Below are positions 2,788 through 12,421 of a DNA stretch of 64,000 nucleotides, in pieces (the first letter of the stretch is position 1; every line of letters begins with the position of its first letter). The stretch is taken from positions 256,001-320,000 of the forward strand of contig CAWCYD010000002.1 of the NCBI GenBank assembly GCA_963799775.1, in the 5' to 3' direction. The translations under genes and the position numbers were made by a program. The DNA is from an uncultured archaeon. GTDB taxonomy: Archaea; Thermoproteota; Nitrososphaeria; Nitrososphaerales; Gagatemarchaeaceae. Below the pieces are notes generated by a model that did no database searches, was not told the origin of the DNA, and saw only the letters and a program-made list of their open reading frames with translations.

Positions 2788-3534
2788 TAGTCTCTGCTCC
2801 CCTTGCGTGTATCCGAGCCAGCAGGTGGGCCCCTTGTTCAGGCCTTCGTAGACGTAGATACCCACGGCCTCGACGTTCTCTGGCATCTTGGGAGCGATCC
2901 TCGTCAGGAGTTCTCGCGCGAGGTTCTCCACCGTAGCCTCGCCGTCCAAGAGGACCGTGGTCTCGACGGGGACGTGTAGGCTGAAATCGCCGTGGACGGT
3001 CATGAACGCGAGGTCCACGTGGCTCGAGCTCCTCCCGGTGACATACTTTTCGTTGATGAACAGCTTGTGGTCGAGGTCAGAGATCGCCTTCTTGATGATG
3101 GGTTTCGCGTCGTTGAAATCGACGACCATGCCGTCGACGGGTCGACCCATTATCTCCACGAGCGCCGAGGAGGTGTGGCCGTGCATCACCGAGCACTTCT
3201 CAGTCTTCGGAAGAATGTGCGCGTAGTCGAAGTTGAAAGAAGGGTCGTCGAGGAAGATCGTTTGGAGCCTTTCGTCCTCGAGGTCGCTGGGGAGGACCGG
3301 TTCGTGCTTCTTCCTCCCGGTTCTGGAGGACCTCGCGTACCCTCCCTTGTCGAGTGACTCGAGCTGCTTCAATATCTGGGGGCTCGTGAGAAGCTCCTTC
3401 CCTCTCAGATTCGGCACGGTCTGCCGCGGTGCGCGGTTCGACTTATACGGGTTTTCTTGGGATCCGCGACCGTCGACCCGGAGCTTCCCTACGTAGTCGA
3501 GGACATGTACCTTCTCTACGTCGGAGGCGTTCAT
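2775..3534 (-). CDS. queD: 6-carboxytetrahydropterin synthase QueD (PTPS family) with N-terminal extension; 3' end uncertain
   Basis: FDYAH...CSVMHGH, GMVVDF, LDHK, EATVENLA and VYEG motifs; adjacent to queC. Confidence 0.85.
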
Positions 3535-3557
3535 ATCTCTTATAACGAAAAAATCTA

Positions 3558-4409
3558 GTGTACAATCTCATGAAGAGAGGAGTGGCGGTCGCGTTCCTTT
3601 TCATCCTCTCCTTCGCCATGCTCCATCTTCCCGCCTACGCGAGCGCATCGCCCGCGAAGTCTCCCACGAGCCTGCTTGTTCCGCTCTACAGCGCTCCTGG
3701 CAGCGAGTGGACCGCCTTGATCCAAGAGAGACAGGTCGACCCCGGCGTGCCCATGGTCGCCATCGTGAACCCGTCGAACGGTCCAGGGGCGTCCCCCTCT
3801 CAGGAGTTCACCGACGGGATCCAGCGTCTGCAGGAGGCGGGGATCAGCGTGCTGGGATACGTCGATACGAGCTACGGCGACAGGAACATCACGGTCGTCA
3901 AGGCCGAGATCGGGGACTACATGAGGTGGTACGGGGTGAACGGCACCTTCCTTGACGAGATGGCGGACAGTCCAGGGCACGAGGCATACTACTCGGCCCT
4001 GACAACCTACTCGCACGAGATCGGAGCCTATCTGGTGATTGGAAACCCTGGTCACGACGTTCCTTCGAGCTACGTCGGGACGGTCGACACCCTCGTCATC
4101 GCAGAGAACGCGAGCTTCTCGACGACGTCCTTCCTCGGGGGATGGCATTCCGAGTATCCGAAGAGCGACTTCGCGGCGATTACCTACGGCGCGGCGCTTA
4201 ACCAATCCTACTTGGAGGCCGCTTCGAGATATATCGGTTATCTCTATGTCACGAACGGGGCTCTTCCCAATCCCTATCTTTCGCTCCCGAGCTACCTGGG
4301 TTCTCTCGTCACCCAGTTGGCGGGCCTCGAACCTATCAACAGCCCGCCGGTCAACTTCACCCCTGTAGCTGTCGAACCGGAGCACTCGGTCCTCTCGTCC
4401 CAGAACTAA
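3558..4409 (+). CDS. Spherulation-specific family 4 (GH135-like) secreted protein
   Basis: Signal peptide; LVPLY, IVNPSNGPG, LGYVDTSYG, GTFLDE, IGNPG and VIAEN motifs. Confidence 0.8.
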   Translation: MYNLMKRGVAVAFLFILSFAMLHLPAYASASPAKSPTSLLVPLYSAPGSEWTALIQERQVDPGVPMVAIVNPSNGPGASPSQEFTDGIQRLQEAGISVLGYVDTSYGDRNITVVKAEIGDYMRWYGVNGTFLDEMADSPGHEAYYSALTTYSHEIGAYLVIGNPGHDVPSSYVGTVDTLVIAENASFSTTSFLGGWHSEYPKSDFAAITYGAALNQSYLEAASRYIGYLYVTNGALPNPYLSLPSYLGSLVTQLAGLEPINSPPVNFTPVAVEPEHSVLSSQN

Positions 4410-4490: not shown

Positions 4491-4895
4491 CTATGCTGAC
4501 TTCTGCATGTCAGAATCTACAAGCTCTTCCGCCAGGTTGGCGATTTCCCCCTTGATCTGGCGCAGCAGTCGGAGAGAGTTGTAACGGATGGCGACTACGC
4601 CGTAGGGCAGTGGCCTTTTCGAGAAACTGGGGGCCTTAACCACGGTTTTGATGAAGTTGGAGTCGTTCAGAGCGGTCACGGTCTTCCAATAGTCTTTGCA
4701 CCTCGGCTCATTGTCTTGAACATGAATGGTGAGCCTCGCCCTAATCCTTTCCTCGATTATGTCCTTACTTCGGAGATATTTCATGAAGACTGCAACCATC
4801 TTTGGATCGGAGTTGACAAACTCCACCCGTCTGTCTTCCTCGCGCTTGCTACCCTCACACCAATAGAGGATTAATCCCGCTGTAGCGATGTCCAC
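4491..4895 (-). CDS. LAGLIDADG-like small protein
   Basis: GLILYWCEGSK...FVNSDPKMVAVFMKYL...YW...PYGV pattern resembles degenerate LAGLIDADG-like proteins. Confidence 0.6.
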   Translation of the reverse strand: MDIATAGLILYWCEGSKREEDRRVEFVNSDPKMVAVFMKYLRSKDIIEERIRARLTIHVQDNEPRCKDYWKTVTALNDSNFIKTVVKAPSFSKRPLPYGVVAIRYNSLRLLRQIKGEIANLAEELVDSDMQKSA

Positions 4896-4994
4896 GTTGC
4901 TTTAGGGGAGTCTAATAATTAAGCTCCTTCACCCAGTCGAAGCGGTCGACGCAGTAACCTCATTTATACCGGCTTTGGGGTTCGCAAGGGCTGC

Positions 4995-5091
4995 GCGGCC
5001 GTGATCCAGTGGTTAGGATTTAGGCTTCCCATTCCTGAAGCCCGAAAGGAGGAGAGAGCCTGACGCCCGGGTTCGAATCCCGGCGGCCGCA
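4995..5091 (+). tRNA. tRNA-Gly(CCC) with 25-nt canonical 37/38 intron (5032-5056)
   Basis: Acceptor stem GCGGCCG/CGGCCGC, D-stem ATCC/GGAT, anticodon CCC at 5028-5030, T-loop GTTCGAATC. The intron forms a bulge-helix-bulge (TTCC/GGAG central helix, TCCT/AGGA outer helix). TTTATA upstream. Confidence 0.95.
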
Positions 5092-5219
5092 TCTTTCTCT
5101 CAAGATGGTGACCGGGCAAGCCAGGGCAAAAACGGACAAAATCAGGCTTTTTCACGCAGTTATATGTGCCAATAGTCAAACTCCACCTGGAGCGATGTGA
5201 ACGTAGAATCCGTGAGAGC

Positions 5220-6032
5220 ATGACAGTTGGCAAGAAGATAAACGTCGGCGAAGTTCTGTCAAAGTCCACCAATCTTCTCACCGCGAACCCGTCCATCATC
5301 CTCATCCAGCTGCTCCCTGCGGTGCCTTCGCTCATCAGCGACGTCTTCTCGGGCCCCGCGATATTCAGTCCGATTGTGATCATAGCCACGCTCCTCTCTG
5401 CCATCTTCAGCGTGATAGCCAGCGGGGCCTACGCCCCGGTCGTCCGGGAGGCGCTCCAGGGCCGGCGCCTGACAATAGGCGAAGCGTTCGGGCACGCGTA
5501 CCGCAGGTTTTGGAACCTCGTTCTAGCAGGAATCGTAGTCGGTGTCATAGTCATCCTCGGCTCCATCGCCCTGATAGTGCCCGGGATCATTTTTGCGACC
5601 TGGTATGCCTACACCACCCCCGCGATAATGCTGGAGGACAAGGGAGCGTTCGATGGGATGGCAGCGAGCAAGGCCTTCGGTCGCGACAAGAAGTCGAGCA
5701 CTTTCGCCCTCTTCCTGACCTTCCTGTTGGTCTACATCGTGGTGGCGATAATCGGCGCCGTGCTGTCCCTCGGCGGCGGCGGAAGGGTCATCCAGACGCT
5801 CTTGGACATCCCTCTGAGCGCTTGGACCTCCGTCGTGATAGCCTACACCTACATCACTTGCGGTCCTTCGGCAACAGCTCCGCAAGCCGCGCAGCCCGGC
5901 TGGCAACAGCCTCCATCCACGATGCCCGGTCCCACTCCCGTCCCCCAGAGCGCGTCGGCCTTCTGCGCGAACTGCGGCGCGCCTCTCCAGCCTGACGCGA
6001 AATTCTGCCGCAACTGTGGAAAGCCGGTCTAG
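5220..6032 (+). CDS. Multi-pass membrane protein with C-terminal zinc ribbon
   Basis: Several TM helices, LIVPGI motif, C-terminal CANCG...FCRNCG. ATG at 5220 is preferred to the upstream GTG. Confidence 0.8.
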   Translation: MTVGKKINVGEVLSKSTNLLTANPSIILIQLLPAVPSLISDVFSGPAIFSPIVIIATLLSAIFSVIASGAYAPVVREALQGRRLTIGEAFGHAYRRFWNLVLAGIVVGVIVILGSIALIVPGIIFATWYAYTTPAIMLEDKGAFDGMAASKAFGRDKKSSTFALFLTFLLVYIVVAIIGAVLSLGGGGRVIQTLLDIPLSAWTSVVIAYTYITCGPSATAPQAAQPGWQQPPSTMPGPTPVPQSASAFCANCGAPLQPDAKFCRNCGKPV

Positions 6033-6513
6033 GCGCCAGGACCTCCGGGGTCTCCTTCTTCGCGGTAATCACGCTCTTCAGCGCCTCCTCGGCATGACGG
6101 GTCGCCTGCAGCTGCGATGAGAAGACCGACCTCACGACACCCTCGCCATCGATGACGTACGTGACCCTGCCGGGGATGATGCCCATCGACGAAGGCACAC
6201 CGTACAGCTTCCTCACCGAGCCCCCGGAGTCGCTGAGGATCCTGAACGGCAGGTTGCAGTCGCTCGCAAAGCCCTTGTGGGAACCGACCGAGTCCGAGCT
6301 CACGCCTACGACCTCGGCGCCCAGCTCTCCGAACTGCGTGTACTTGTCTCGAAAGGCCCCCGCCTCCTTGGTGCAGCCAGGGGTGTTGTCCTTAGGATAG
6401 AAGTAGACGACGACGGGCCCTCGGCTCACTAGCTCGCTGAGCTTCACCATGTTGCCATCCTGAGAAGGCAGCTCGAACTCCGGGGCTCGGTCCCCGACCT
6501 TGACTTTCGGCAC
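6029..6513 (-). CDS. bcp: Peroxiredoxin, BCP/PrxQ type
   Basis: FYPKDNTPGCTKEA motif. The ORF track runs to 5854, but a stop near 6029 in another frame avoids a long overlap (probable indel). Confidence 0.9.
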
Positions 6514-6532
6514 TGAAACGCACCCTTGCCAG

Positions 6533-6868
6533 TTATACGCCGGTGGTGGGTCTCAGGCCTATCGTCCCGCCTTTGATCTCGAGCTCGTATACCTCGTTTA
6601 CATCGAGCCTCATCGCGAACATGTCGTACTCGCTCTCGGTGAGGACCATCGTGATCTTCGGGAACGCCAGCTCCCTTACCTGGGGCATCAGGCCCATCCC
6701 CTGGAGCTGTGAGACCATGTTCTGGACCATCCTGTTCTCCTCGCCCCCTATCCCATACACCTGACCTGATACGCGCTGCCTTACCTCCACGAGCTCGATC
6801 TGTTTGGACGGGACGCCCGTGTATGGGTCGGTGACGCTGCTGATGCGATGGACCTTGACTTGCACCAT
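6533..6868 (-). CDS. Arcadin-1-like protein
   Basis: VTDP.TG...QIELVE and PKITMVLTESEYD.....DV..VYELEI..GTI match, from memory, Pyrobaculum arcadin-1 (DPTG..KIDVVE; PRITLWLTEEE..DV.D.IEI.I..GAI). Confidence 0.7.
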   Translation of the reverse strand: MVQVKVHRISSVTDPYTGVPSKQIELVEVRQRVSGQVYGIGGEENRMVQNMVSQLQGMGLMPQVRELAFPKITMVLTESEYDMFAMRLDVNEVYELEIKGGTIGLRPTTGV

Positions 6869-6916
6869 GCCTGGCGCTATTTTTCGCGGCGAGTTATATT
6901 GGTATCTAGTCCGGAA

Positions 6917-7519
6917 TTAGACCGTCTCTTCTCTTTGCTGTTCTTCTAGGTCTTCCTGCTCGTCCTCATCGGCGTCAGCCGCCTCAAAGTCATCCTCCTC
7001 CTCATCGGGAGGCATCGCAGGCTGGTCTCCGGCCGGCGCTGGTATCGGGGCTGGGGCTGGCGCTGACTCCTCCACGGAAGGAACAGAAGGCTCGGTCGGA
7101 GGCTGCTCTTGAGACTGCGAGGCCGGGTACATCTCACTCTCGCGCCTCGCCAGCTCCTCGACGTATTCCGGACTGATCACCCTCGCCATCGAGAGGTTCA
7201 CCAGGCTGTGGTTCGACGCGTCCCCGGTTACCCTTCCCATGGGTCCTCTGAGCTGTCTCCACTTTAGCTTGCTGTTGCCGCTCTTCGATGTGTAGATTAT
7301 CCCTAGCACCTCGTTGGCGTTGACGAACGAGATGTCGCGGATCCTCTTGAGCGTGACCTTGTCCGCCGCCTCGATGTAGATCGACCCCGGCTCGGACTCC
7401 TTCTCTGGGAAGACCTCCGGGTTCCTCAGGTAGGACTCGGGGATGAAACTCCGGCAGGTGCTGTTGACGAGGAACCTCCTGAACGCTTCGAGGTGGCAGT
7501 TGGCGTCGATCTCGACCAT
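6917..7519 (-). CDS. Hypothetical protein with Pro-rich and acidic C-terminal tail
   Basis: 200-aa ORF with host-like codon usage; globular N-terminal part and low-complexity acidic tail. Confidence 0.7.
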   Translation of the reverse strand: MVEIDANCHLEAFRRFLVNSTCRSFIPESYLRNPEVFPEKESEPGSIYIEAADKVTLKRIRDISFVNANEVLGIIYTSKSGNSKLKWRQLRGPMGRVTGDASNHSLVNLSMARVISPEYVEELARRESEMYPASQSQEQPPTEPSVPSVEESAPAPAPIPAPAGDQPAMPPDEEEDDFEAADADEDEQEDLEEQQREETV

Positions 7520-7800
7520 GATAACTCCCTACCGGGACTCTCGTGACTCCAAAGGGCTATTATTTGAAGATAGGGTGTTGTAGATTCGGACGCTGGCCAG
7601 TGCTTGGCTCGGTGACATGTCGGCTTGTCTGGGTCAGAATTCGCAAGACTCAAGAAACAGCTATCCCAAGAGTAGCAACGTGGGTAATGATCGCATTTAG
7701 CCTGTTGACCTCACATGAGAAAGATCTTGAGTCGAGAACCCACAAAGATTCGCCTTCCAACACGCTGCTAACGTTAATAAAATGTCATTGTACAGATTCA

Positions 7801-8093
7801 ATGGCTGAAGCGCTCTGGCAGACCCCTTAGAGCGGTTAGAGGAAAAGATTGAGAGAACGAACTCGCTTCTCATGGCGATTCTTCGGCTCACTCTTGACAA
7901 CCAGCCAAGTATAACTGTAATGCAGAAAATCGAAATTCTAAACAGCGTAGGATTGCGACCGAGCGAAATCGCTAGGATTCTAGGAATCGGTTCAAACCAG
8001 GTGTCGGTCACCCTTGTCAAGATAAGGAAACGAGGCGAACACTCTGCCACGCCGCACAAGTACAAGGAGAAATCAGCAGATTCTACCGGCTGA
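7801..8093 (+). CDS. Small helix+HTH protein 1 (long type); start either ATG 7801 with an indel or CTG 7815
   Basis: LERLEEKIERTNSLLMAILRL...KIEILNSVGLRPSEIARILGIGSNQVSVTL; TTAATAAA about 25 nt before 7801. Confidence 0.75.
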
Positions 8094-8598
8094 CACTCTC
8101 AGCTATCCTGTTTCTGTTTTCATCAGCTCGTCTCAAACAGAGTTCGAGACCATAAGGCAAGAAATCAAGAACGACCTAAAAGACCTGAGGATCGCGGAAC
8201 GACAGGTCTTTTCCCCAACCCTTGTTGAAATGGAACGAGGCGAACAAATCGAGCACGATATTGAAGACGCACTGAAAAAATGTGACATCTATGTTCTTCT
8301 CGTTGGAAACAAGTACTCTGAATGGACCGAAAAGGAGTTCAACATGGCGTGGACTTCTGGTATTCCCATCAAGGCCTATCTAATCAGAAGCAGACAAGTG
8401 CCGAGTAATCGGGAAGCCCAGAGGCAGAGACGGTTTCTCGAACTCGTTCATTCACGAGTGCGCCTCCAAGGGAAGGACAGGCCATATGGCAGGGGGAACC
8501 TCCTCCGCCTGTACAACGATATCGCGAATGACACGGCGGCAATTGTCTTGAAGAGCGTTCATGACCATGTTGCCATCCGACGTATTCTAAGACGCTGA
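8044..8598 (+). CDS. DUF4062 / TIR-like (flavodoxin-fold) domain protein; start uncertain
   Basis: The frame is open upstream of the annotated ATG 8230 and gives VFISSSQTEFETIRQEI...CDIYVLLVGNKYSEWTEKEFNMAWTSGIP, the DUF4062/TIR-like FISS and conserved-Glu pattern. Confidence 0.75.
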   Translation: MPRRTSTRRNQQILPADTLSYPVSVFISSSQTEFETIRQEIKNDLKDLRIAERQVFSPTLVEMERGEQIEHDIEDALKKCDIYVLLVGNKYSEWTEKEFNMAWTSGIPIKAYLIRSRQVPSNREAQRQRRFLELVHSRVRLQGKDRPYGRGNLLRLYNDIANDTAAIVLKSVHDHVAIRRILRR

Positions 8599-8659
8599 TT
8601 CGCGCATAAAACTGGCAAATTTTCTAGTACTTTCATTACCATATTCTCAACTTGCAGAA

Positions 8660-8691
8660 TAGCGTTCTAGAAAACGCTAAAATCCTTAAAT
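8660..8691 (+). promoter_or_regulatory. Inverted repeat TAGCGTT-n6-AACGCTA next to the TATA box of the HTH operon
   Basis: Perfect 7-bp arms at 8660-8679, followed by CTTAAAT about 25-30 nt upstream of ATG 8716. Confidence 0.55.
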
Positions 8692-8715
8692 CGTCTTGGG
8701 TGAGTTCAAAGACGC

Positions 8716-8871
8716 ATGGATGAGGAGAAATTCGAGACAATTCGAGACTTGCTCATTATTCTCCTCCTCAAATCGGGCGTGAAACACGAAGCCGTAGCGG
8801 AAGCCACTCATCTCGATCTCAAATATCTCAAGAACAAGTTTCCGCTGAGCAAGATTTCCAGAGAAGATTAG
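8716..8871 (+). CDS. Small helix+HTH protein 2 (short type, 51 aa; not in ORF track)
   Basis: MDEEKFETIRDLLIILLLKSGVKHEAVAEATHLDLKYLKNKFPLSKISRED*. Confidence 0.75.
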   Translation: MDEEKFETIRDLLIILLLKSGVKHEAVAEATHLDLKYLKNKFPLSKISRED

Positions 8872-8873
8872 TT

Positions 8874-9116
8874 ATGCCAAATGCCGAGCTCGATCCCGTT
8901 TCGAATCGTCTGGACGCCATCACTCGCTTATTAGTCGAGTTTCTCAAACAACAAGAGGAGATGAACGTCGGAGACATAGTGCTGTATTTGCAATCGGCTG
9001 GACTCAGAAGAGTTGAGATAGCGAAAATCCTCGGTGTCAAACATACCTCCATTCCTGGCATCGTCGCGCATGCTAAGAACAAGGAGCTGAAGCAAAAACT
9101 GGAGACCTCGAAATGA
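8874..9116 (+). CDS. Small helix+HTH protein 3 (long type)
   Basis: RLDAITRLLVEFL...IVLYLQSAGLRRVEIAKILGVKHTSI; paralog of the 7801-8093 protein. Confidence 0.8.
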   Translation: MPNAELDPVSNRLDAITRLLVEFLKQQEEMNVGDIVLYLQSAGLRRVEIAKILGVKHTSIPGIVAHAKNKELKQKLETSK

Positions 9117-9280
9117 GTGGCGAGACAAAAGAACTGCAAGATATCAAGAGACTCCTCATATTGCTCTTGCAAGCCAACAAGGTCAAGCAACCTGAGATCG
9201 CGAAAGCATTGGGAATCACCGATAGGCAAGTCCGGCGACTGATTAATTCGAGGGAAAGGCCCAATGCCGAAGAAGATTGA
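9113..9280 (+). CDS. Small helix+HTH protein 4 (short type, 55 aa; not in ORF track)
   Basis: MSGETKELQDIKRLLILLLQANKVKQPEIAKALGITDRQVRRLINSRERPNAEED*; ATGA overlap with the previous stop. Confidence 0.8.
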   Translation: MSGETKELQDIKRLLILLLQANKVKQPEIAKALGITDRQVRRLINSRERPNAEED

Positions 9281-9488
9281 TTATCCGGAGCAGGAATTGA
9301 AGACAATCCAATTGCTTCTTGCTGGATTACTCCTCAAGGAGGAACCCCGTCCAGATGTTGGAAAGTTGGAGAATCTAATTCACGTTCGCAAGGGCACACT
9401 GTCAGAAATCTTTCCTCAACGAAAAGCCAAGAAGTCAACGAAGTCCTCGGCTCATTCAGCCACCGGAGGTGAATCAAACGCCAAGTGA
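9264..9488 (+). CDS. Small helix+HTH protein 5 (diverged short type)
   Basis: ELKTIQLLLAGLLL...DVGKLENLIHVRKGTLSEIFP; shares the ELxxIxxLL helix and terminal FP. Confidence 0.7.
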   Translation: MPKKIDYPEQELKTIQLLLAGLLLKEEPRPDVGKLENLIHVRKGTLSEIFPQRKAKKSTKSSAHSATGGESNAK

Positions 9489-9645
9489 CGAAATCAAGGA
9501 ACTGACTAGCATCAAGAAGTTGCTAATCCTTCAGCTCCTCAGAGACGGTGCCACTTCAGAGGACATAGACAAAGCCACGGGCATGGGTGCGAGCAATATT
9601 CGCGGAATGTTCCCCAAGGTCAAGAAGAAGAGCCTTACCGACTAA
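9469..9645 (+). CDS. Small helix+HTH protein 6 (short type; not in ORF track)
   Basis: PSDEIKELTSIKKLLILQLLRDGATSEDIDKATGMGASNIRGMFPKVKKKSLTD*; GGAGGTGA upstream; TAATG overlap with the next gene. Confidence 0.8.
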   Translation: MNQTPSDEIKELTSIKKLLILQLLRDGATSEDIDKATGMGASNIRGMFPKVKKKSLTD

Positions 9646-10538
9646 TGGCAATTCATGTCACTGACGTGCGTTCTAACCCAGAGGACCAGATCGCACACGC
9701 AGCCAAGATACTACAGAAATCTGAACAGGCAAGAAGGCTGTTCCGAGCCATATATCGTGGTAAGACCAAGATCAAGACAATTTCAGCCCTCGTAAAGGCA
9801 ACGGGCTTAAGTGACAAGAGAGTTCTAATCGTCGGAGCCAAACTCGTAGGAAACCGCATCATAGCAGTCAATGACAAAAAGGTCGAGGGACGTATTGCGT
9901 ATGTCAAAGATCCATTCTACAACCAGCATCGCCAAAAGATACTAAGACTGGCTGAGAACCGTATTTCCCTAAAGAAGTACCCTACGAAATACAATGTTCC
10001 ATTCGATTCGGTCCGTGTCGTTCTAGACTTTCAAAGGCAGTCAATTCAGGTGACCAGTATCAGCGTTGACGACATTGACTCTTTCGCTCTTGTCCGGACC
10101 ATCCATGACGCCCCCAAACCAGTCGCAATTTCCGAATTGGCTTTCAAGAATGGGGTGAAGGAAATCTTGGGAGAGCAGGGAGAATTTCAAGACTGGGGAG
10201 GTGAGCAAAACGACCTCTTCACCACACGCCTCTTCATTGGGCGGCGAAGATTAACTGCTGCGTTCGGATTCAAAGGAAAAGGAACAAGCGGGATTCTCAC
10301 CCCCAAGAAAATGGGGAAGAATGGCGACCAAATACAAAGATTGTTCAGATCTACTGCGACTGTTTTCCTCGTTCAATATTGGGGACAAGTAGGCCAAACA
10401 ATTGTCGAACAGATGCATTCCCTCGCGACAGCAAAATCGGCCTTCGGGGGAAGAAGAATCTACTATGGAATAATTGATGGCGCGGACACTCAGAGGCTAG
10501 TTTCGGCCTATGCGGTTAATTTTCGGAACCTAACTTAA
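9645..10538 (+). CDS. Two-domain protein: N-terminal wHTH plus C-terminal restriction-endonuclease-like (PD-(D/E)xK) domain
   Basis: N-terminus: RLFRAIY...KTISALVKATGLSDKRVL. C-terminus: ELAFK...DWGGEQNDLF...AFGFKG...GDQIQRL, an E/D/K/Q spacing typical of REase-fold nucleases (inference). Confidence 0.65.
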   Translation: MAIHVTDVRSNPEDQIAHAAKILQKSEQARRLFRAIYRGKTKIKTISALVKATGLSDKRVLIVGAKLVGNRIIAVNDKKVEGRIAYVKDPFYNQHRQKILRLAENRISLKKYPTKYNVPFDSVRVVLDFQRQSIQVTSISVDDIDSFALVRTIHDAPKPVAISELAFKNGVKEILGEQGEFQDWGGEQNDLFTTRLFIGRRRLTAAFGFKGKGTSGILTPKKMGKNGDQIQRLFRSTATVFLVQYWGQVGQTIVEQMHSLATAKSAFGGRRIYYGIIDGADTQRLVSAYAVNFRNLT

Positions 10539-10548
10539 CGCCTTATTT

Positions 10549-10571
10549 CCGAAGCGCCGAAGGCGCTTCGG
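10549..10571. terminator. Perfect 10-bp hairpin CCGAAGCGCC-GAA-GGCGCTTCGG between convergent genes
   Basis: Read directly from the sequence; function inferred from position. Confidence 0.5.
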
Positions 10572-10614
10572 GCGCCAACATATGGATTCTCTCCCGTCCC
10601 CTTTCAATTCCGCT

Positions 10615-12108
10615 TTACACGATGAGCAGGAAGGCCCATATTGGAACGATTACCGCACTACCGTCTTCTTTGAGTTCATTCTTGCTCAACAGTAGTCCTG
10701 GGTTTTTTGACCCTGTTGCTTTGCCGAAGTCGATAAGCCCGTACTTGTCATCGCGGCCAATCGAGTTCTGATATTTCACTTCCACGGGGAAGAAAGTCGA
10801 ACGGTCTTCTTTCATTACGAAGTCCACCTCTCGATCCTTCTTGCTCTTCCAGTAGAACAAGCAAGTCTTGTACTCGAATAGCTGCTTTTGCTTGCTAAGC
10901 AAGAACGAGAGACGCACGAGGTGGTTGGCAACAACCGATTCAAGCAAGCATCCAACATTCCGTTCTTCCTTCAAGTACTCAATCGATGAAGAGAAGGGTT
11001 CAACTCCTTTGCACCAGGCTCTCATTGAATGAAAGAAGAACGGATCGTCGAAGAAGATTTTCTTGTCCTTCTCGTAGGCAGGATTCTTCTGATTCAAATC
11101 GAGCCTATGAAGATACACCATGGCAAAGGTGTCAGTGATGTGTTCGATGTAATCTGCCGCTGTCGCGTGACTCGCAATGTCGGTATCTTTTCGCAGAGTG
11201 TTCCAGCCAACAGGATTTCCCATCGTATCAATAACTCGACTGACGATTTGTCTTACGTATGTCTCGCGCTTCCCCCATCTCTGCAAATCTCCCAAGACCG
11301 AATCGACATAGGTCTTGTAGACGCCTTCGACGATCTGGCCCTTTGTCTTGTACTCGTTTACCACTTTCGGAATTCCTCCCGTAATCAGATATTCCGACAG
11401 CAATAGCTGAAGTTCCTTCGAGTATAGTGCAATTTCCTTCATTTCTTCGATCTTACCTTCGAATAGTCCTTTGAAGATCTGCTTGCGCGTCTCCCAAAAT
11501 AACCGAAAAGGTCCAATCACTTCTTTGGCGAGCTTAGGATTGACGGATTCCACGTATTCGACAAACTTCATGGGTAGCATTATCTTGTCTAAGGAATCGT
11601 TGAGATTACCTCTCCTGCCTGGCAGCCTTTCTGAGTTGGTTTTCACGTCAATTGAATGTGATCCCGTCAACACGACCGTCGCGTTGTCTAGAACTCCCGT
11701 ATCCGCAAGGTGTTTTACGCCCCTTTGCCAGTCCTTGACTGAAGATATCTCGTCTAGGAAAAGATAGGCCCGCTCCTTCTTGTTCCGTATTGTGTCCGAA
11801 TAGTTGGAGACAATGCTAGCCAATTCCTTCGGGTTATCCACCAAATTACATGTGTAGTAGAATACATTCCTTGGATTAGACTCCTTTAGTCGTTCGGAGA
11901 TCATTGTCTTAACCAGCGTGGTTTTACCAACCTGTCGCGGGCCCCTTAGAGTGTAGACCGCATCTTTTTTCCAATCGAAGAAGTGCTTTACTCTCGGCTC
12001 CCATTTTATCGTGCTTTGCTTGAGATTAACAATGTCCTTGTCTGAATCTATAGCTGCTTTGTTTCTCCACCAGGGGTTCTGTCCTGCTAATTCAATTGGA
12101 AAGGACAT
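10615..12108 (-). CDS. AAA_14 + DUF4143 ATP-binding protein (COG1373-like)
   Basis: QNPWW, Walker A GPRQVGKT, Walker B LFLDEI, TGS, LPGR, TGGIP; C-terminal EVDFV..PVEVK. Confidence 0.9.
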   Translation of the reverse strand: MSFPIELAGQNPWWRNKAAIDSDKDIVNLKQSTIKWEPRVKHFFDWKKDAVYTLRGPRQVGKTTLVKTMISERLKESNPRNVFYYTCNLVDNPKELASIVSNYSDTIRNKKERAYLFLDEISSVKDWQRGVKHLADTGVLDNATVVLTGSHSIDVKTNSERLPGRRGNLNDSLDKIMLPMKFVEYVESVNPKLAKEVIGPFRLFWETRKQIFKGLFEGKIEEMKEIALYSKELQLLLSEYLITGGIPKVVNEYKTKGQIVEGVYKTYVDSVLGDLQRWGKRETYVRQIVSRVIDTMGNPVGWNTLRKDTDIASHATAADYIEHITDTFAMVYLHRLDLNQKNPAYEKDKKIFFDDPFFFHSMRAWCKGVEPFSSSIEYLKEERNVGCLLESVVANHLVRLSFLLSKQKQLFEYKTCLFYWKSKKDREVDFVMKEDRSTFFPVEVKYQNSIGRDDKYGLIDFGKATGSKNPGLLLSKNELKEDGSAVIVPIWAFLLIV

Positions 12109-12123
12109 GCCGTAAGAGTATTT

Positions 12124-12147
12124 ACATCTTATTTATAAATAAGATGT
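12124..12147. promoter_or_regulatory. Perfect 24-bp palindrome ACATCTTATTTATAAATAAGATGT centred on the ATPase gene TATA box
   Basis: Equal to its own reverse complement; lies 16-39 nt upstream of the ATG at 12108. Confidence 0.75.
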
Positions 12148-12421
12148 CAGTGCAATTACATCGCGCAATCAAGCTCCGGCAAATAACCACAAATGCTGGA
12201 TTTCGCCCGGGAATCCGAAATTATTCCAATCACACACACAACGTCATAGCCCCAAAAACCTGAATTCAAAATAGAAGTCCTAATACGTCACACGTTAACG
12301 ATGAGTTAACGGTTTATCAAGATCATTTTCAGGCTAATGCGGCCATCACCCACGTTCGGGCCCGCTCCCGGCCGAAGCCAAAAACCTATCTTCAAATGGT
12401 AGCAGTAAGCGATCTGACCGA

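Follow-up and report, generated by a model that had tools for sequence, protein, structure and literature searches.

We analysed a 64,000-nucleotide (nt) stretch of the genome of an uncultured archaeon of the Gagatemarchaeaceae (contig CAWCYD010000002.1, positions 256,001 to 320,000), referred to here as the window, which carries a compact cassette of unnamed genes. Five small open-reading frames (ORFs), each encoding a helix-turn-helix (HTH) protein of 51-80 amino acids (aa), run on one strand into a gene for a 297-aa protein that we call the effector (Table 1). The genes are tightly packed: a 2-nt gap separates the first two, and those that follow overlap by 4 nt (ATGA), 17 nt, 20 nt and 1 nt (TAATG), the last being the overlap of the fifth small gene's stop codon with the effector ATG. 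An original prediction, made from the letters of the window without database searches, had described this layout, and our ORF list and junctions confirm it. Homologues of the effector elsewhere are preceded by variable numbers of similar small genes, hereafter mini-HTHs. Our data suggest that the cassette may be a mobile conflict module in which small HTH proteins govern a putative nuclease.

Table 1. Features of the cassette and of the surrounding island, in window positions (c1 and c2 are our own cluster labels, explained in the text; HMM, hidden Markov model).
Feature	Position	Strand	Remarks
Left arm, 25-nt imperfect inverted repeat	7556-7580		Island left edge; GC changes from ~0.59 to 0.48
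Sixth mini-HTH paralogue	7872-8093	+	73 aa; c1; 5' of the TIR-like ORF; c1 HMM E 3.4e-15, genome-wide 1e-14
TIR/DUF4062-like ORF	8113-8598	+	Pfam TIR_2 1e-4 (23.2 bits, cutoff 28); DUF4062 0.015; PADLOC ThsB 1.4e-4
Inverted repeat	8660-8679		Perfect 7-nt arms, TAGCGTT-N6-AACGCTA; 37 nt 5' of ORF 1
Mini-HTH 1	8716-8871	+	51 aa; c2-like; c2 HMM E 2.8e-8, genome-wide 8.3e-8
Mini-HTH 2	8874-9116	+	80 aa; c1-type; c1 HMM E 1.3e-15
Mini-HTH 3	9113-9280	+	55 aa; c2 HMM E 1.5e-12; sole member above a Pfam cutoff
Mini-HTH 4	9264-9488	+	74 aa; most degenerate and weakest member; c2 HMM E 7.7e-8
Mini-HTH 5	9469-9645	+	58 aa; GTG start; c2-type; adjoins the effector; c2 HMM E 1.5e-16
Effector	9645-10538	+	297 aa
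GC-rich hairpin	10550-10570		9-bp stem with 3-nt loop; separates the effector gene from the ATPase gene converging on it; read by eye
AAA_14 + DUF4143 ATPase	10615-12108	-	497 aa; AAA_14 7.7e-26; DUF4143 1.9e-15; PADLOC single-gene candidate PDC-S01 5.7e-33
Right arm, 25-nt imperfect inverted repeat	12379-12403		Island right edge; GC changes from 0.40-0.50 to 0.58-0.61

A diverged family of small HTH proteins

A common pattern runs through the small proteins, a helix of the form ELxxIKxLLxLxL followed by a G....EIAxALG segment, with FP present in ORFs 1, 4 and 5. ORFs 2-5 are 16-29% identical to the first and none of the five finds another by BLAST at 1e-3; we therefore regard them as old, diverged paralogues. 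HMMs built from the small upstream genes of other loci match all five, and a sixth paralogue farther upstream, at E values between 1e-7 and 1e-16. All six are one family by this measure, and the predicted combination of a shared helix and HTH-like pattern with high divergence holds. Mini-HTH 5, which we aligned with 34 effector-proximal homologues, has the closest relative, the effector-abutting gene of a Bathyarchaeota metagenome-assembled genome (MAG; locus L003; 71% identity). The relatives of the other window ORFs are weaker: mini-HTH 2 reaches 49-50% identity to the effector-proximal genes of two loci (L042, from Chryseolinea serpens DSM 24574, and L022) and the sixth paralogue 45% to array members of three (L047, L032 and L024), and mini-HTH 4 has no BLAST match at 1e-3 in other loci.

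Matches to described families are sparse. Mini-HTH 3 exceeds the Pfam cutoff for HTH_23 (3.8e-7, 30.2 bits; cutoff 24.6) and also matches Sigma70_r4_2 (9.4e-4). The sixth paralogue matches the same two families below threshold only, mini-HTHs 2 and 5 have sub-threshold matches only, to the non-HTH families CurL-like_PKS_C and DUF3489, and mini-HTHs 1 and 4 have no Pfam match. Both the HTH_23 and the Sigma70_r4_2 alignment run from residue 10 to residue 45 of ORF 3 and take in the N-terminal helix, which thus reads most simply as the opening helix of a sigma-region-4/LuxR-like HTH. The earlier proposal that the small proteins hetero-oligomerise through this helix as a separate element finds no support here. 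On the simplest reading, the mini-HTHs would be stand-alone sigma-region-4/LuxR-like HTH domains with a short basic tail, and a coiled-coil helix joined to a separate HTH is less likely. In PADLOC-DB v2.0.0, four of the six have no match; the weak matches of the other two (E 0.0013-0.038) link ORF 3 to WYL, mad1, PRTase_III-A and CARF3, and ORF 2 to PRTase_III-A. The palindrome 5' of ORF 1 is a candidate operator, and the hairpin behind the effector gene is likely a terminator.

Mini-HTH arrays upstream of the effector gene

The effector family is large and scattered through bacteria and archaea, and its homologues share roughly 40-56% identity with the effector. A search of 5.8 billion proteins returned 1,150 homologues at E <=1e-3, the best of which, apart from the effector itself, are 292-323 aa long and 55-56% identical; those that carry a name are almost all 'hypothetical protein'. 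In a library clustered at 50% there were 1,060 representatives at <=1e-3 and 160 at <=1e-30. A collection of species genomes contained 131 stretches that encode effector relatives, and we kept 80 of them (38-56% identity), drawn from many bacterial phyla and several archaeal lineages. Occurrence is sporadic: from a phylum-wide sample of 301 genomes, we found the effector in 2, one of them the window's own, where it is single-copy. Collections of plasmid and phage records yielded three distant, partial matches to the C-terminal domain (C-domain) only, all 'hypothetical protein' or unannotated. Strong conservation together with this scattered distribution points to horizontal spread.

One Nitrospirota MAG carries the same cassette at the ends of two long contigs (L018 and L019), with the effector split into ORFs of 242 and ~60 aa. 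An assembly-breaking repeat or a duplicated, decaying copy could account for this, and both loci were excluded from the effector alignment.

In the 80 loci and the window we called ORFs of at least 35 aa and grouped the neighbours into clusters; those of small upstream genes then served to build HMMs, in at most three iterations. By our own labels, clusters c1, c2 and c5 hold proteins of ~55-90 aa, and c3, c6 and c9 proteins of ~95-150 aa with a winged HTH (wHTH). After removal of overlaps and effector ORFs, a contiguous, same-strand array of one to six mini-HTH genes was found upstream of the effector in 75 of the 81 loci, window included, as expected from the original prediction of variable numbers of HTH paralogues. 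There were 19 loci with one gene, 21 with two, 15 with three, 10 with four, 8 with five and 2 with six. Six loci lack such an array: in one, only 98 nt of sequence precede the effector, and in five the nearby matches are non-contiguous or on the other strand. On the effector strand, 145 mini-HTH matches fall in the first 500 nt upstream, 45, 19 and 12 in the three bins beyond and 40 just downstream; the opposite strand has 29. No match lay beyond -2.5 kb or +0.5 kb of the effector, with about 30 kb of sequence per 500-nt bin. Effector ORFs were excluded from these counts because the iterated c3 and c6 HMMs absorbed effectors. We do not claim that the small c3 wHTH proteins are homologous to the effector N-terminus: the first-iteration c3 HMM matched 2 of 83 effector ORFs at E <=1e-3 (best 2.7e-5).

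Training and iteration of the HMMs used the very 81 loci in which we counted, and three controls were run for this reason. In the whole 2.47-Mb genome of the window (19,286 ORFs of at least 40 aa), the c1, c2 and c5 HMMs strongly match only the six ORFs of the island described below; the remaining matches have E values of 1e-4 or weaker and lie in larger proteins. In a locus on which no HMM was trained (L115, same order), three overlapping, same-strand mini-HTH genes stand 5' of the effector. Finally, 30 canonical Mrr_cat loci (94 kb, 625 ORFs) gave no mini-HTH match. L115, from the only other effector-bearing genome in the phylum sample, has three more mini-HTH or wHTH genes on the divergent strand (3154-3853 of that locus).

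Within the arrays, the gene next to the effector stands apart. A mini-HTH ends within 60 nt of the effector start in 67 loci (c2 in 44, c1 in 14, c5 in 7, other in 2). Distances among proximal genes correlate with those among effectors (Mantel r=0.415, reached by 0 of 2000 permutations, n=60), a correlation that co-inheritance alone can explain and that the mixture of c1, c2 and c5 proximal types may have inflated; for the penultimate gene, r was 0.089 (reached by 113 of 2000, n=37). The pattern fits a co-inherited two-gene core accompanied by accessory mini-HTHs that turn over. Mean pairwise distance is 0.57 for the effector versus 0.76 for the HTH. The c2 family has 416 detectable homologues of 52-86 aa, variously named 'hypothetical', 'transposase' (by the Joint Genome Institute, JGI), 'predicted transcriptional regulator' and 'sigma24 family'.

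A winged HTH and a putative nuclease-like domain

The effector consists of an N-terminal wHTH (approximately aa 10-110), a linker and a C-terminal alpha/beta domain (aa 128-297, nt 10026-10535). An AlphaFold2 model of the full-length protein, from an alignment of 32 sequences, has a predicted local distance difference test score (pLDDT) of 82. Foldseek against the PDB matches its N-terminus to BpsR, TubR, AbsC, SarA and SmtB (probability 1.00, E 2.6e-3 to 5e-2, none at 0.001 or better) over alignments of ~90-130 columns. The modelled structure confirms the predicted wHTH and indicates one of the MarR/TubR/SmtB type. Full-length searches were dominated by this part, and we therefore refolded the C-domain alone. 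The resulting model, from 61 sequences, is a five-stranded sheet with flanking helices (pLDDT 93; predicted template-modelling score, pTM, 0.89).

Structural neighbours of the C-domain lean toward restriction endonucleases without reaching significance. Its best PDB match is Rpb5 (E 0.13, probability 0.91), whose N-terminal domain has a restriction-endonuclease-like fold; Avs4 (query-normalised template-modelling score, TMq, 0.40) and MUS81-EME1 rank lower. In BFVD, the matches ranked 1, 2, 4, 5 and 6 carry the name 'Restriction endonuclease' (E 0.033-0.11, TMq up to 0.48), and an Mrr-domain protein stands at rank 8. The ten best named neighbours in ESM-Atlas are all Mrr_cat or Mrr_cat_2, with scores of 0.80-0.88, which below 0.9 are leads only. 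Profiles of the effector and its C-domain also picked out zwilch, streptolysin O and designed armadillo repeats among solved structures, which we set aside as chance matches.

The conserved residues are arranged suggestively. Invariant positions in the C-domain are E164, D183-W-G-G-E187, D190, R202, K210-G211, G224 and Q229, and the DWGGE..D, FKG and GDQ motifs vary little or not at all among homologues. In the model these residues occupy a helix, the loop before a hairpin, the hairpin and the following helix; D183, E187 and D190 precede the first hairpin strand, and K210 ends the second. The catalytic motif of Mrr_cat is D ... (Q/E)xK on the beta2-beta3 hairpin, and the conserved residues of the effector follow, by eye, the order of the Mrr motifs. 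The motifs of the nuclease-like domain that had been predicted from sequence are present, and the similarity to a nuclease fold is weak. The usual Q/E before the lysine is a glycine in the effector, and we accordingly call the C-domain restriction-endonuclease-like, unproven. A complex prediction for the effector and the proximal mini-HTH family scored 0.00 in both runs, without controls, and counts neither way.

Exchange of partners

Both halves of the cassette occur with other partners. In 21 of 81 loci, HEPN-like genes are part of the cassette or adjoin it. One cluster, c4, has its own mini-HTH directly upstream in 10 of 13 matches; it corresponds to the PADLOC candidate PDC-M34B (E down to 7e-51) and weakly matches Swt1-like HEPN. 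Another, c7, is similar to Hypoth_Ymh (1.8e-16) and to PD-Lambda-3_B. The sixth mini-HTH of the window stands ahead of the TIR/DUF4062-like ORF. The C-domain, for its part, lies at the end of a 684-aa protein that carries TIR at its N-terminus (P0271; 38% identity over 159 residues), of a 622-aa protein of unassigned N-terminus and of a 437-aa protein in a viral contig. In another viral contig (L082, positions 4508-7575), an integrase gene is followed by two AbiTii paralogues in tandem (225 and 216 aa), by the DWGGE domain as a stand-alone protein of 227 aa and by an AbiJ_NTD4 protein. The C-domain of the effector is mobile, and the swapping of effector partners foreseen in the original prediction is seen on both sides: the mini-HTHs pair with Swt1-like and Ymh HEPN genes and the TIR-like ORF, and the C-domain with TIR or AbiTii. 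The L082 locus also repeats the layout of tandem adaptor paralogues plus effector with a different adaptor.

Flanking genes give a mixed defence context. We considered 148 of the 152 proteins that flank the effector in the 80 loci, leaving out four longer than 800 aa. Recurrent Pfam families were Hypoth_Ymh (six genes), Phage_integrase (three) and, at two each, GIY-YIG, Gp49, HEPN_Swt1, AP2/HNH and Methylase_S; a type IIG restriction enzyme-methyltransferase occurred once. There was no recurrent methyltransferase among the top 25 families of this set, and none in the window island.

A foreign island

The cassette lies in a low-GC stretch of ~4.8 kb (about 7,550-12,400; GC ~0.47, against 0.57-0.63 around it) that also contains the TIR-like ORF and an ATPase gene; the latter converges on the effector across the hairpin. 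Both edges of this foreign island coincide with the arms of a 25-nt imperfect inverted repeat, which are 84% complementary. The ends have no further copy in the genome, and we dropped a transposon reading of the repeat on that account. The TIR-like ORF has its first ATG, GTG or TTG at 8230, and a conserved N-terminus (...VFISSSQTEF...) is encoded upstream in the same open frame. The frame is already open at 8065, +1 relative to the mini-HTH ending at 8093; a non-canonical start, a frameshift or decay could explain a start upstream of 8230.

Discussion

We think there is roughly an even chance that the cassette is an unnamed, mobile conflict module, serving defence or addiction, in which HTH proteins resembling controllers or antitoxins govern a wHTH-nuclease effector. 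Its core unit would be the ~60-aa sigma-region-4/LuxR-like protein (here mini-HTH 5) translationally coupled to the ~295-aa wHTH plus alpha/beta protein, and the zero to five further diverged mini-HTH genes upstream would be accessory and turning over. The mini-HTHs may bind operators at the cassette promoter, for which the palindrome is a candidate, and may repress or neutralise the effector in the manner of restriction-modification (R-M) controllers or HTH antitoxins. If control failed because invader DNA arrived, the cassette was lost or the HTH proteins were titrated away, the effector would act: its wHTH could target it to DNA, which it would cut, with the D183/E187/D190 cluster and K210 as candidate catalytic residues. 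Gene order, conservation, co-divergence, scattered occurrence, mobility of the C-domain and the wHTH fold are observed; we infer DNA cleavage, repression or neutralisation, and the role in defence.

Several points weigh against this explanation. No PDB or BFVD entry matches the C-domain at E 0.001 or better in Foldseek, and the ESM neighbours, all below 0.9, remain leads. Hhalign against an alignment of 20 Mrr_cat sequences gives a probability of 1.96%, over 23 C-terminal columns only. Pfam searches of 61 C-domains at E up to 5 return no nuclease family; the commonest weak match is ERp29_N (19 of 61), which we take as chance. The canonical (D/E/Q)xK is absent, with a near-invariant Gly208 two residues before K210, and we found neither sequence-level nor experimental proof of nuclease activity. 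As to the array, the counts come from HMMs trained on the loci counted and rest on the three controls, the correlation of the core pair may have the other causes given above, and the retention of up to six mini-HTH genes is left unexplained. Many of the 148 flanking genes are housekeeping (FTHFS, LytB, DNA ligase).

Alternatively, the cassette could be purely regulatory, with the 297-aa protein a transcription factor whose C-domain senses a ligand or signal, the mini-HTHs its co-regulators and nothing toxic. The MarR-like wHTH is the only statistically clear fold assignment, sequence comparison gives no nuclease family, and some c2 homologues are named as transcriptional regulators. The GKxGDQ and KGKG motifs could bind nucleotide, and the C-domain has many low-probability PDB matches to ATP-binding-cassette nucleotide-binding domains. 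We nevertheless find this unlikely. The C-domain occurs without the wHTH in effector-type contexts, fused to TIR or placed after AbiTii and next to AbiJ_NTD4, and HEPN genes occupy the same place behind mini-HTHs. The invariant acidic cluster and the lysine on a beta-hairpin suggest catalysis, and the nearest structural and ESM neighbours are restriction endonucleases.

Just as improbable, in our estimate, is a selfish addiction module that stabilises its island and has no part in virus defence, with the proximal mini-HTH as antitoxin and the distal ones as orphan or anti-addiction antitoxins gathered by accretion. Several features resemble type II toxin-antitoxin systems with HTH antitoxins: the gene of a small DNA-binding protein precedes that of a larger putative toxin, with translational coupling between them; the cassette is mobile, sporadic, single-copy and housed in a small foreign island; one HTH type pairs with HEPN, the TIR-like ORF and the DWGGE domain; and co-divergence with the effector is limited to the proximal gene. 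Unlike those systems, the cassette has arrays of up to six antitoxin-like genes, which to our knowledge is not a feature of any toxin-antitoxin system, and its effector has a wHTH of its own. The effector is also far more conserved than typical toxins of such systems, as the mean distances given above show. Addiction overlaps with the conflict module that we favour rather than excluding it.

There is a slim chance of a bolder variant, in which the array is a modular targeting or sensing repertoire and each member recognises a different invader DNA motif or protein, licensing or recruiting the shared wHTH-nuclease. Cells could then retune a nuclease response by gaining and losing tiny HTH genes, and HEPN and TIR effectors could be armed from the same repertoire. 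Slimmer still is the chance that the genes serve the movement of a small transposable or integrative element, with the mini-HTHs as transposase-type DNA-binding subunits and a PD-(D/E)xK-like protein as the cleaving enzyme: HTH_23, HTH_28 and HTH_29 similarities, c2 homologues named 'transposase' by JGI, the inverted repeat around the island and the sporadic distribution would suit it, but the cassette is present once in the genome, the island ends lack a second copy, the repeat also encloses unrelated cargo (the TIR-like ORF and the ATPase), integrases make up 3 of 148 flanking genes, conserved terminal repeats in other loci were neither sought nor seen, and a variable array is odd for a transposase.

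The conflict module that we favour resembles several known kinds of system. Mrr-type type IV restriction endonucleases, of ~300 aa, combine an N-terminal winged helix with a C-terminal Mrr_cat domain. The effector is like them in length, in its N-terminal wHTH and in the nearest structural and ESM neighbours of its C-domain; by eye, it also has the same motif order (E-helix, acidic G-rich loop, hhhxK, hhDG..L), and no conserved methyltransferase lies near it (Methylase_S in 2 of 148 flanking genes). It differs in having no Pfam Mrr_cat or Mrr_N match (no Mrr_cat match for the full-length protein even at E up to 1; hhalign 2%), in lacking the Q/E two residues before the lysine, in an extra invariant GDQxQ helix and in its mini-HTH genes, which the 30 canonical Mrr loci lack. 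Those 30 loci came from the same phylum; 20 entered the alignment and the rest were short or had stop codons.

Controller (C) proteins of R-M systems are single-copy, Xre-type and found with a methyltransferase. As in operons of a C protein and a restriction enzyme, a small HTH gene of the cassette overlaps the downstream effector gene and a palindrome lies 5' of the first HTH gene, and the proposed logic, delayed or limited expression of a nuclease, is the same. Unlike C proteins, the cassette HTHs are sigma-r4/LuxR-like, come in one to six copies and have no methyltransferase.

Defence candidates with HEPN genes come closer in the genome than in kind. The PDC-M34 (B) and PD-Lambda-3 (B) genes lie in or beside the cassette, usually with their own mini-HTH upstream, as described above. 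These are neighbours: the window effector and mini-HTHs match none of their models, and the window has no HEPN gene. Abortive-infection architectures of AbiTii or AbiJ-NTD with HEPN, in the accessible part of their description, join N-terminal or upstream adaptors to swappable effector domains (Anantharaman et al., 2013; PMC3710099), and that part mentions neither the effector domain nor mini-HTH arrays. The DWGGE domain placed after two AbiTii paralogues and before AbiJ_NTD4 in L082 recalls these architectures, whereas the adaptor of the cassette is a separate, tiny HTH protein and not a fused domain.

That the cassette belongs to no named defence system, as first supposed, agrees with our searches. 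The effector has no significant match in Pfam, NCBIfam, PADLOC or PHROG; in PADLOC-DB v2.0.0 it matches no family, and matches are found among its neighbours only (PDC-S01 and a ThsB-like ORF, and PDC-M34B in other loci). Full-text searches of the literature gave no description of the cassette and no precedent for its array, within a scope that covered main texts and not supplementary tables, such as those of the PADLOC and DefensePredictor papers, which could list the family. The portions available of PMC8195603 and PMC12839542 hold nothing relevant to the cassette. We place it with known kinds of HTH-controlled conflict module of the nuclease type, from which a new effector domain and the unusual array of mini-genes set it apart.

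These results give an unannotated family of more than 1,000 members a conserved genomic signature and a role that can be tested; its cassette occurs in many phyla of bacteria and archaea. Should this cassette serve defence or addiction, it would bring a new effector domain, also found fused to TIR, and an unusual control architecture, in which HTH proteins of 50-80 aa are encoded in arrays of variable size. Most of these proteins fall under the usual cutoffs for gene calling, and systems of this sort come into view when small ORFs are called. One mini-HTH family common to nuclease-like, HEPN and TIR-like partners hints at a shared regulatory or sensing currency in defence islands.

Among the sequencing runs listed for the queried words of this DNA there was no RNA run, and one soil-metagenome DNA run contained 0.22 of the words. 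Elsewhere in the window, ARAGORN calls a 97-nt tRNA-like gene (4995-5091) with an undetermined four-letter anticodon (attc); this could be a false call or an archaeal tRNA gene that contains an intron.

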